Source: Leeuwenhoekiella palythoae (GTDB taxonomy: Bacteria; Bacteroidota; Bacteroidia; Flavobacteriales; Flavobacteriaceae). From it: DNA of 64,000 bases. Made by a program: the position numbers and the translations under genes. Shown in pieces: positions 39,981-42,030 of this stretch. The notes beneath the pieces were generated by a model. That model saw only the letters and a program-made list of their open reading frames with translations, did no database searches and had not been told where the DNA came from. The stretch covers positions 226,266-290,265 of the forward strand of contig CAXPYI010000003.1 of assembly GCA_964221315.1 (NCBI GenBank), read 5' to 3'. Numbering within the stretch: position 1 is the first letter of the stretch; every line of letters starts with the position of its first letter.

Positions 39981-41561
39981 ATGAAAAAGCTTTCATTGGT
40001 CTTTTGTACCATAGGATTAATTTTGAGTTGCGGTACTTCTTCCAAAGGCAAAACAACTTCAGCTCAAAACGAAACCAAGGTAGTAGATCCTGCCGATTAT
40101 GCCTCAACAATCACCACAGAGGAATTAAAAGAGATGTTGTACACCTACGCCTCAGATGAATTTGAAGGAAGAGAAACCGGAGAAAAAGGGCAAAAACTAG
40201 CCGTAGAGTATTTAAAAGAACAGTACAAAGCAATGGGCGTTGACACACCTTTAGGTGATGATGACTATTTTCAGGAAGTACCATTGGAAAAACAAAGCGT
40301 TTCGGAAGCCAAAATTTCTGTAAATGGAAAAAGCTTTAAAAGTTTTGAAGACCATATCGTCTTAAGAGCCTCAGAAAATATTAGTGTTTCACCTGAGGAA
40401 ATCGTTTTTGTTGGTTACGGTATCGATGCAGACAACTATTCAGATTATAAAAATATTGATGTAAAAGGCAAAATTGTATTAGCAAAGTCTGGTGAACCAA
40501 AAGATGCAAATGGAAATTATCTTACCTCTGGGTCCGATGAAGACACAAAATGGACCAACGGTCGACAGTCTTTATCCAGCAAAAGAGATGCTGCCATAAA
40601 TAATGGTGCAATAGGCTTAATTTACATGGACGACAACTTATTTACAAGGTATGCGCCATACTACCAAAGACAGGCTACAGCAGGAACTTCGGGTCGTTTA
40701 TCTCTAAAAAGTTCGGATGCAGACTTTTTTATGCTAATGGTTTCTGAAAACCTCGGAAAGGCACTTCACAGTGAAATTTTAGAAGATGAAACATCGAAAG
40801 CTATCGGTTCAAAACTAGAATTATCCATTCAAAATAAATCTGAAGAAATTATTTCAGAAAATGTTGTCGCCTATATCAAAGGTTCAGAAAAACCTGAAGA
40901 AATTGTTGTGATTTCTGCGCACTTAGACCATGAGGGCATTAAAAATGGTGAAGTTTACAACGGTGCTGACGATGATGGCTCTGGCACTATCGCTATTTTA
41001 GAAATTGCTGAAGCTTTTAAAGCAGCCGAAAAAGCCGGTAATGGACCTAAGCGTTCCATTTTATTTCTTCATGTTACTGGTGAAGAAAAAGGACTACTTG
41101 GTTCGAGACACTACACCGACAATGACCCTATCTTTCCACTAGAAAATACTGTTGCAGATCTTAATATAGATATGATCGGAAGAACCGACCCTAAACGCAC
41201 AGAAGGTGACAGAAACTATATTTACCTTATTGGCAGTGATAAATTAAGTACTGATCTTCACAATATTTCAGAAGAAGTAAATGCCAAATATTGTAATGTA
41301 GAATTAGATTACACCTATAATGACGAAAACGATCCAAACCGTTTTTATTACAGATCTGATCATTATAATTTTGCCAAAAATAATATTCCTGTAATATTCT
41401 ATTTCAATGGAACGCATGCAGATTATCACAAACCAACAGATACTGCGGATAAAATTGAGTACGATTTATTGGAAAATAGAACAAAACTCGTATTCCATAC
41501 TGCTTGGGAAGTAGCTAACAGACCAGATAGAATTGTTGTTGATAAAATACAAGAACAGTAA
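39981..41561 (+). CDS. M28 family metallopeptidase lipoprotein with PA-domain insertion
   Basis: AHLDH, GADDDGSG, GEE, NIDMIG, RSDH, DYH. Confidence 0.92.
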   Translation: MKKLSLVFCTIGLILSCGTSSKGKTTSAQNETKVVDPADYASTITTEELKEMLYTYASDEFEGRETGEKGQKLAVEYLKEQYKAMGVDTPLGDDDYFQEVPLEKQSVSEAKISVNGKSFKSFEDHIVLRASENISVSPEEIVFVGYGIDADNYSDYKNIDVKGKIVLAKSGEPKDANGNYLTSGSDEDTKWTNGRQSLSSKRDAAINNGAIGLIYMDDNLFTRYAPYYQRQATAGTSGRLSLKSSDADFFMLMVSENLGKALHSEILEDETSKAIGSKLELSIQNKSEEIISENVVAYIKGSEKPEEIVVISAHLDHEGIKNGEVYNGADDDGSGTIAILEIAEAFKAAEKAGNGPKRSILFLHVTGEEKGLLGSRHYTDNDPIFPLENTVADLNIDMIGRTDPKRTEGDRNYIYLIGSDKLSTDLHNISEEVNAKYCNVELDYTYNDENDPNRFYYRSDHYNFAKNNIPVIFYFNGTHADYHKPTDTADKIEYDLLENRTKLVFHTAWEVANRPDRIVVDKIQEQ

Positions 41562-41656
41562 TAAATTAACTATAAAAAAATAAATCCTACACTATAAGTG
41601 TTAAAATTTTATACAAATCATTGATTTATTAGGTTTTTTGTGTATATTTAATGTGT

Positions 41657-41732
41657 TGTATTGGGGTGCTGATACATTTCGGCTGAGAAAAGACCCATAA
41701 CACTCGTTGGATAATGCCAACTAAGGAATACA
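41657..41732 (+). promoter_or_regulatory. TPP-riboswitch-like element, divergent and orphan
   Basis: P1 TGTATT/AATACA, GGGGTGC...GCTGAGA...ACCC, P5 GTTGG-ATAATG-CCAAC, AGGAA. Confidence 0.72.
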
Positions 41733-41740
41733 TTAACAAG

Positions 41741-41782
41741 TAAAGGGAACAATATGTATATCATTTGTTCCCTTTATTATTT
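41741..41782 (+). terminator. Intrinsic terminator after the riboswitch-like element
   Basis: TAAAGGGAACAA / TTGTTCCCTTTA then TTATTT. Confidence 0.75.
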
Positions 41783-41846
41783 AAGAAATCTGCCAAAAAC
41801 GTGTAATACAAAAAAGCCTTTCATTTCTGAAAGGCTTTGTCTTTTT

Positions 41847-41863
41847 GGGTGGAAGATGGGACT
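41847..41863 (-). repeat. 17-bp direct repeat of the tRNA-His 3' end
   Basis: GGGTGGAAGATGGGACT identical to 41955-41971. Confidence 0.9.
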
Positions 41864-41865
41864 TA

Positions 41866-41882
41866 CTTCGACTACGCTCAGC
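41866..41882. repeat. REP-like element core
   Basis: CTTCGACTACGCTCAG resembles the cores at 2651 and 60740. Confidence 0.55.
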
Positions 41883-41955
41883 ATAAACTTCTCGTCCTGA
41901 TATATTAAAACTGATCACAAAAAAAGCTCCTTATTTCTAAGAAGCTTATATTCTG

Positions 41956-42030
41956 GGTGGAAGATGGGACTCGAACCCACGACATCTGGTACCACAAACC
42001 AGCGCTCTAACCAACTGAGCTACAACCACC
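41956..42030 (-). tRNA. tRNA-His(GTG)
   Basis: G-1 GTGGTTGTAGCTCAGTTGGTTAGAGC, CTGGT-TTGTGGT-ACCAG, GGTTCGAGTCC, C discriminator. Confidence 0.96.

Follow-up and report, generated by a model that had tools for sequence, protein, structure and literature searches.

By definition, a riboswitch joins an aptamer to an expression platform through which the gene behind it is controlled, and several aptamer-bearing RNAs are known whose output is something other than attenuation of a gene directly downstream. SreA and SreB of Listeria are SAM riboswitches that act in trans while still being leaders of real operons, EutX/Rli55 is a small RNA harboring a B12 riboswitch, with its effector domain located after the riboswitch terminator, and Vc2 c-di-GMP aptamers lie at the 3' ends of small RNAs in Vibrio. 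The orphan TPP-like aptamer described here resembles these RNAs in this respect and differs from SreA/SreB and EutX/Rli55 in having a terminator alone 3' of the aptamer and no partner that we could find.

With the TPP riboswitch (THI element, RF00059), as represented by the E. coli thiM leader and by the thiS-thiC and thiM leaders of Winogradskyella, the orphan shares the three-way-junction fold, the pyrimidine-sensor helix GGGGUGC ... GCUGAGA ... ACCC, the L5 sequence AUAAUG and the junction adenines. Unlike these riboswitches, its G60, C77 and G78 are replaced or paired, it appears to have its own conserved promoter directly 5' of P1, it seems to lack an antiterminator or start-site-sequestering platform, and it has no downstream gene. 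A second relevant type, for which the OMthi operons of Bacteroides provide the comparison (PMC5613172; bioRxiv 10.1101/867226), is the TPP riboswitch linked to TonB-dependent receptors. It occurs in the same genome, belongs to the same aptamer family, likewise lacks the J5/4 CG and scores 33-51 bits, but it lies 50-100 nt 5' of the receptor ORF with a conserved leader and keeps a P4 of the form CCUG/CCUA ... AGG, features in which the orphans differ. The HMP-PP riboswitch (thiS motif) is a thiamine-pathway sensor whose ligand is not TPP, and thus illustrates that precursor-specific sensors exist (PMC6478431); its fold is unrelated to that of the orphan, and it is tiny, embedded in a terminator and always found 5' of thiamine biosynthesis genes, whereas the orphan is not. 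A literature search, whose scope did not extend to the variant classes of Weinberg et al. 2017, found no description of the orphan family.

We consider the chances slightly better than even that the locus encodes a free-standing small RNA which descends from a TPP riboswitch, probably senses a thiamine-family ligand and acts by means other than downstream attenuation. It concerns the most widespread riboswitch class, of which an aptamer has here long been kept, in at least 16 genera, without a platform or a gene, and it combines a regulated-looking promoter with a systematically altered ligand pocket.

An aptamer unit between an M28 peptidase gene and tRNA-His

The window, that is, the whole 64,000-nt stretch of DNA that was analysed, contains three Rfam matches above threshold (cmscan, Rfam 15), one of which is a full-length match to RF00059 (TPP) at 41652-41744 on the plus strand, with 54.3 bits and E = 7.2e-8, a match far beyond chance. 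The score is exactly the gathering score of RF00059, and family membership is thus reached at the borderline; the threshold may have been fixed with this sequence, or one almost identical to it, as the lowest-scoring member accepted. The features of the unit and of its downstream flank are as follows.

41599..41606, plus strand: upstream motif TGTTAAAA, about 56 nt 5' of the predicted start; candidate UP-like element or binding site of a regulator
41621..41650, plus strand: predicted promoter of the flavobacterial sigma-A type (TTG at 41621-41623, 19-nt spacer, TATATTTA at 41643-41650)
41652..41744, plus strand: TPP-riboswitch-like aptamer (RF00059; covariation of P1, P2, P3 and P5 over 39 homologues)
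41657-41661/41728-41732, plus strand: helix P1 of the aptamer
41657-41662 with 41727-41732, plus strand: P1 motif in the sequence, TGTATT with AATACA
41662-41667/41691-41697, plus strand: helix P2 of the aptamer
41663-41669, 41682-41688 and 41693-41696, plus strand: pyrimidine-half motifs in the sequence, GGGGTGC, GCTGAGA and ACCC
41668-41672/41679-41683, plus strand: helix P3 of the aptamer
41684-41689, plus strand: aptamer junction J3/2, UGAGAA
41703-41706/41722-41725, plus strand: helix P4 of the aptamer, weak
41706-41710/41717-41721, plus strand: helix P5 of the aptamer, with the sequence motif GTTGG (41706-41710), ATAATG, CCAAC (41717-41721)
41733..41741, plus strand: linker UUAACAAGU between P1 and the terminator, invariant in the three-species alignment
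41742..41782, plus strand: intrinsic terminator, stem AAAGGGAACAA / TTGTTCCCTTT, extended by a bulged upper stem; tail ATTATTT
41813..41838, no strand assigned: second, bidirectional terminator hairpin (terminator scan), part of the convergent tRNA-His unit and outside the RNA gene
41955..42029, minus strand: tRNA-His(GTG), intact, the convergent downstream neighbour

All the sequence motifs that a first-pass annotation had quoted for this element were present where it had placed them. In the cmscan alignment P1, P2, P3, J3/2 (UGAGAA) and P5/L5 of the window copy are intact and the optional P3a hairpin is absent, J4/5 is deleted, J5/4 is reduced to a single C and the 4-bp P4 contains one mismatch. 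The pyrophosphate-sensor junctions are indeed divergent, as had been claimed, with CACTC replacing the consensus ACCTGAT and TA (41722-41723) replacing CGT.

The promoter box resembles the flavobacterial sigma-A consensus, TAnnTTTG at -12 to -5 (PMC9723704); the promoter ends about 5 nt before P1, and transcription is predicted to start at ~41655, 2 nt 5' of P1. Counted from this start to the U-tract, the predicted RNA comprises ~128 nt (~41655-41782). A 131-nt RNA from the locus gave a fold z-score of -4.4 relative to shuffled sequences. The strong terminator noted in the first pass was recovered at 41742-41782 as a hairpin that folds at -16 kcal/mol, precedes a U-rich tail and is present in the minimum-energy fold, with arms at 41742-41752 and 41764-41775 and a T-tract reaching 41782. 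At the level of sequence, then, the unit is a predicted short non-coding transcript delimited by its own promoter and its own intrinsic terminator. Two small ORFs within or behind the RNA, one of 11 codons at 41651 and one of 48 codons at 41754-41900, were considered and rejected, neither being conserved in the orthologues.

Upstream, the unit is flanked by an M28 peptidase gene, which ends at 41561. Downstream, there is no plus-strand ORF of credible size, in agreement with the earlier statement that the element has no gene to control; the accompanying claim that only tRNA-His remnants follow was mistaken, as the tRNA-His gene is intact. The terminator at 41813-41838 is kept beside tRNA-His in congeners that lack the aptamer, and 17 nt of the tRNA 3' end are duplicated at 41847-41863. 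In the region 41809-41971 the tRNA-His terminator is followed by the 17-nt copy, ~90 nt of unrelated sequence and a second terminator, and then by the intact tRNA. This interruption, which looks like a small insertion into the tRNA 3' end or a partial tandem duplication of it, is shared by genomes G015 and G006, while the region is uninterrupted in G012, G009, W. ouciana and SS_bin_48. Beyond tRNA-His lie three minus-strand genes, encoding a PIG-L family deacetylase, a PLP enzyme of Cys/Met metabolism and a T9SS-tailed protein.

Distribution and selection across Flavobacteriaceae

The source genome (3.5 Mb, 14 contigs) contains three TPP-like matches: the window unit, a TonB-receptor-linked riboswitch (47.9 bits) and a further gene-less copy on contig 13.

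C13:102558-102654 (locus L003 1501-1597), minus strand: second gene-less TPP-like aptamer plus terminator, 44.2 bits, below the Rfam threshold

The two orphan copies are 74% identical over promoter and aptamer. In the contig 13 copy the terminator directly follows the aptamer and is shared with a convergent MscS-like gene. This copy is also divergently oriented to a gene for an FKBP-type isomerase.

A covariance model, R1, was built from 12 orphan units; it scores these 12 units, from 9 of 97 Winogradskyella species genomes, at 71-110 bits, and gives the receptor-linked and biosynthetic riboswitches of this genus 48 bits at most. The separation is clear, with orphans at 57 bits or more and receptor-linked riboswitches at 48 bits or less. 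R1 was further used on 401 Flavobacteriaceae genomes from 302 genera, and an exact IUPAC pattern of the unusual J2/4-P4-P5 segment was scanned over one genome each of 185,579 species. Together, these searches brought the total to 39 loci, distributed over 36 genomes and at least 16 genera of marine Flavobacteriaceae; the carriers outside Winogradskyella are Formosa maritima, Aquaticitalea, Hanstruepera ponticola, Altibacter lentus, several MAGs and a dozen further genera. Had the RF00059 model scored the element as an ordinary TPP aptamer, this would have spoken against a divergent one; the window copy reaches such a score only at the borderline of 54.3 bits, and its paralogue and most members of the family fall below the Rfam threshold. 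Since most orphans and the receptor-linked riboswitches of the genus are below 54.3 bits, routine annotation misses them.

The order of elements is the same in all members: promoter, aptamer, a linker of 2-12 nt, terminator hairpin and U-tract. A TAnnTT(T) box, fitting the flavobacterial sigma-A consensus TAnnTTTG, begins 18-23 nt 5' of the P2 GGGG in 38 of the 39 members, and a TTG precedes it by 17-21 nt in 25, so that the members have conserved boxes at -33 and -7 in addition to an upstream motif. The latter, TGTTAA, is located 61-67 nt (mostly 64-67) 5' of the P2 GGGG in 24 members, while three others have it at 54-55 or 75 nt (27/39 overall); its background frequency in the genome is 0.49 per kb per strand. 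TGTTAA(A) is a candidate binding site of a regulator. A terminator hairpin with a U-rich tail was found in all 37 units tested (-12 to -24 kcal/mol), the usual stem being GCAAAGGGAA.../...UUCCCUUUG. This architecture of promoter, aptamer and terminator, apparently with no antiterminator, best supports the first pass's reading of a stand-alone RNA among those it had offered.

In a three-species alignment (the source genome, W. ouciana and Winogradskyella SS_bin_48) the unit, taken as block 41597-41782, is ~94% identical, with about eight variable positions, compared to 74-82% in the flanking genes (74-79% for the M28 gene and 79-82% on the PIG-L side). The spacers on either side, including that after the M28 stop codon, are unalignable, and conservation ends directly after the U-tract. 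The terminator of the SS_bin_48 orthologue carries a compensatory change, A-U to U-A. Covariation among the relatives' copies, which the first-pass annotation had suggested looking for, was strong across the 39 loci: 91.5% of cells in the 39-sequence alignment are paired, compared to 37-48% with slid partners, both sides change in 18 of 25 pairs, and none of 500 shuffles reached any of five measures. All eight pairs of P1 covary, P2 shows U-A to C-G and G-C to A-U changes, and P5 is wholly exchanged in genome G620 (CUCUG/CAGAG). As judged from these alignments, the unit is under purifying selection.

These data bear on a proposal of the first pass, namely that the element is a decaying relic, a pseudo-riboswitch left over from the leader of a thiamine operon whose genes were lost. 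Consistent with such decay, tblastn with congeneric queries detected no homologue of ThiC, ThiS, ThiM or ThiE in the source genome, P4 is weakened in the window copy, and five congeners lack the unit at the syntenic site. The proposal is nevertheless not supported, and we regard it as extremely unlikely: the identity of the unit exceeds that of the neighbouring coding genes and has sharp boundaries, all helices and the terminator show compensatory changes, the promoter is conserved, the same gene-less layout occurs at the M28-peptidase/tRNA-His locus in three genera, no thi gene lies behind a family member in any relative examined, and the thiS-thiC leaders of the genus are of a different, canonical type (71 bits) and located elsewhere. 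The order M28, RNA, tRNA-His, PIG-L is kept in Winogradskyella (W. ouciana and SS_bin_48), an Aquaticitalea MAG and genome G620, and a second recurrent site, convergent with prfB, is shared by Altibacter and at least four other genera.

The distribution is patchy, as the nine carriers among the 97 Winogradskyella species illustrate, and in the five congeners with the same M28/tRNA-His synteny the site is cleanly empty (30-40 nt), indicating that the RNA is dispensable in many lineages. The RNA is old but often lost. Mobility of the unit was considered and rejected, as a non-exhaustive comparison with the empty sites revealed no terminal repeats or target duplication at its boundaries.

Ligand pocket and thiamine context

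In TPP riboswitches the positions U39-A43, U59, A80, G60, C77 and G78 are highly conserved; the metal-pyrophosphate site holds G60, C77 and G78, of all residues only G78 touching the pyrophosphate directly (PMC3764141). The pyrimidine-sensor half (P2/P3, the J3/2 T-loop U39-G40-A41-G42-A43 and G19) is present in the window copy, and the description of this half as canonical withstood comparison with the family, GGGGUGC, GCUGAGA and ACCC being nearly invariant over the 39 homologues. L5 and the GGAA junction are nearly invariant as well. By contrast, the pyrophosphate contacts G60 (J4/5), C77 and G78 (J5/4) are absent from the window copy, and they are also altered in the family consensus, ACUUCG..CCAACUGAAGG (ACUUCG-NN-GG-AUAAUG-CC-AA-C-U-GAAGGAA), the 3' strand of which is of canonical length. 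In this consensus G60 is replaced by a paired C and G78 by a bulged U, U79 is replaced by a G that pairs with the C in place of G60, and C77 pairs with a G standing in for A61/U62. The window copy falls into a subgroup with a P4 of only 2-4 bp and with junctions of varying length and sequence; in the window copy itself P4 is down to 2-3 pairs, with one G of the SS_bin_48 orthologue deleted, and its function could be weaker than that of the family consensus. In nine class-2 members, from Winogradskyella and Hanstruepera, CUGAGA has become CUGAAA (G42 to A) and P3 is degenerate.

A remodelled pyrophosphate pocket in an aptamer that keeps the pyrimidine-binding half, L5 and the A-minor adenines suggests binding of a thiamine-family compound, and is compatible with the first pass's idea of a variant aptamer with shifted specificity. 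The receptor-linked riboswitches also lack the J5/4 CG, and therefore a non-canonical J5/4 alone does not prove that this lineage lost the sensing of thiamine compounds. One could nonetheless suppose that the fold was exapted without ligand sensing, the TPP scaffold being kept as a structural RNA, for instance for protein binding or as a decoy. The replacement of G60 and G78 and the pairing of C77 throughout the family fit this idea, given that all three are highly conserved in TPP riboswitches (PMC3764141), as do the nine Winogradskyella and Hanstruepera members with CUGAAA and a degenerate P3; but U39-G40-A41-(G42)-A43, GGGGUGC with G19, L5 and the junction adenines are nearly invariant over at least 16 genera, which is what ligand and tertiary contacts demand, whereas a mere scaffold would be more tolerant. 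Loss of ligand sensing therefore seems unlikely to us.

If the sensor RNA binds a ligand, it offers a natural variant in which to study how the specificity of the TPP aptamer changes and, for marine bacteria auxotrophic for thiamine, whose community ecology is shaped by B1 compounds, a test case of autonomous sensing by aptamers. A more specific version of the free-standing sensor, which we put forward tentatively and think possible though doubtful, is that the orphans constitute a sensor-RNA class of the Flavobacteriaceae with a pocket rebuilt for unphosphorylated thiamine or a pyrimidine-bearing relative, encoded by its own regulated gene and signalling vitamin status in trans to a partner, either RNA or protein. 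If true, a riboswitch aptamer would have been turned into an autonomous signalling molecule.

Lacking ThiC, ThiS, ThiM and ThiE homologues, the source organism appears to depend on imported thiamine and is probably a strict thiamine auxotroph. In most of the 97 Winogradskyella genomes there is just one receptor-linked riboswitch (33-51 bits); seven carry a canonical leader of 71 bits 5' of thiS-thiC, and two more leaders, of 67-68 bits, precede thiM-thiE in one case and two uncharacterised genes in the other. As to a link with thiamine prototrophy, carriers of orphans and of thiC leaders overlap only in W. bathintestinalis, and most species have neither; in W. ouciana, W. ursingii and strain A3E31 the orphan units are the only TPP-like elements. 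The receptor-linked riboswitches, at C2:733265-733356 (L002) in the source genome and in homologues L046-L060, have leaders that share a AAGAAUAAUUACCUCUUUUUAUUCGAUUAU block just 5' of the start codon.

The thiamine economy of the host also bears on whether the RNA might be a ligand buffer or sponge, in which case an abundant aptamer RNA would soak up thiamine compounds or toxic analogues without regulating any target. An aptamer with a strong promoter-like signal and neither expression platform nor target gene would suit such a role. Against this, a thiamine auxotroph gains little by sequestering a scarce cofactor, and the lost pyrophosphate contacts argue against tight TPP binding, and so we judge this role very improbable.

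Output of the RNA and its neighbours

A canonical riboswitch would be expected to harbor an expression platform whose structure excludes that of the ligand-bound aptamer, and thermodynamic prediction revealed none in the orphan units. Aptamer and terminator coexist in the full-length minimum-energy folds, and when folding is stopped at the terminator loop, the probability of upstream pairing of the terminator 5' arm averages 0.19 (median 0.16, n=37), compared to 0.64 in the W. bathintestinalis thiM leader, whose P4/P5 strand evidently takes part in an antiterminator. In complementarity to the aptamer, the terminator 5' arm did not surpass its shuffled versions (mean z = +0.67). These results, from thermodynamic folding with the thiM leader as its single positive control, are suggestive of the absence of an antiterminator.

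Two candidate pairings were tried and rejected. An antiterminator between aptamer CCCAUUG and terminator CAAAGGG showed no correlated change in members with CAAAGAG or CAAUGGG arms or with CCCGUCG aptamers, and its duplex energies did not exceed those of shuffled arms; W. ursingii shows a pairing between the P1 5' strand and the terminator 5' arm, which was not conserved.

No thiamine synthesis, salvage or transport gene lies co-directionally downstream. With neither alternative pairing between aptamer and terminator nor a gene behind it, the output of the RNA should not be classical cis attenuation. We infer its expression, ligand and target, and propose the following course of events. A sigma-A promoter preceded by the TGTTAAA motif would start the transcript ~2 nt 5' of P1; the transcript would fold into the three-way-junction aptamer descended from a TPP riboswitch, and an unconditional intrinsic terminator would end it, resulting in an RNA of ~128 nt. 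This RNA may bind a thiamine-family compound, possibly with a relaxed or changed dependence on pyrophosphate, and its folded or unfolded state would then act elsewhere, most likely in trans on an RNA or protein partner, or alternatively by controlling the stability of the RNA itself. A crude duplex scan of 2,589 5' regions, in which long-sequence energies are uninformative, gave no signal for trans pairing with the TonB-receptor leader (the thiamine receptor leader ranked 2,438th and 1,368th), and no conserved seed for trans pairing was identified.

Among 20 independent loci, ~18 have a convergent downstream neighbour, a bias that a purely trans-acting model leaves unexplained. The convergent neighbours (prfB, tRNA-His, murI, MscS-like, hisIE and others) have no common function, and the co-directional ones, a glutaminase gene in two Winogradskyella and a gene for a hydroxylase-like membrane protein in one genus, each lie behind a full terminator. 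The bias might be accounted for by a cis riboswitch that gates antisense read-through, the terminator being skipped without ligand and the transcript running antisense into the convergent neighbour, which here would mean tRNA-His, the PIG-L family deacetylase and the Cys/Met PLP enzyme. The B12 riboswitch/AspocR of Listeria and the S-box antisense system of Clostridium acetobutylicum are systems of this kind. Convergence at ~18 of 20 loci, compared to the 50% expected of random orientation (binomial P ~2e-4), and the succession of aptamer and terminator, which is the normal layout of an OFF switch, speak for such gating; it is at odds with the lack of a conserved antiterminator, with convergent genes that have neither a common function nor a link to thiamine, and with the second terminator, at 41813-41838, between the unit and the tRNA. 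Thus, we hold antisense gating to be improbable, and the free-standing RNA acting elsewhere in the cell remains our preferred reading.

Finally, Winogradskyella bathintestinalis (L063/L095) was found to harbor two orphan units 3 kb apart on the same strand, one located 5' of a glutaminase gene and the other 3' of a gene for a DnaQ/GIY-YIG-type exonuclease; the adjacency of exonuclease gene and RNA recurs in genomes G010, G013 and G057.
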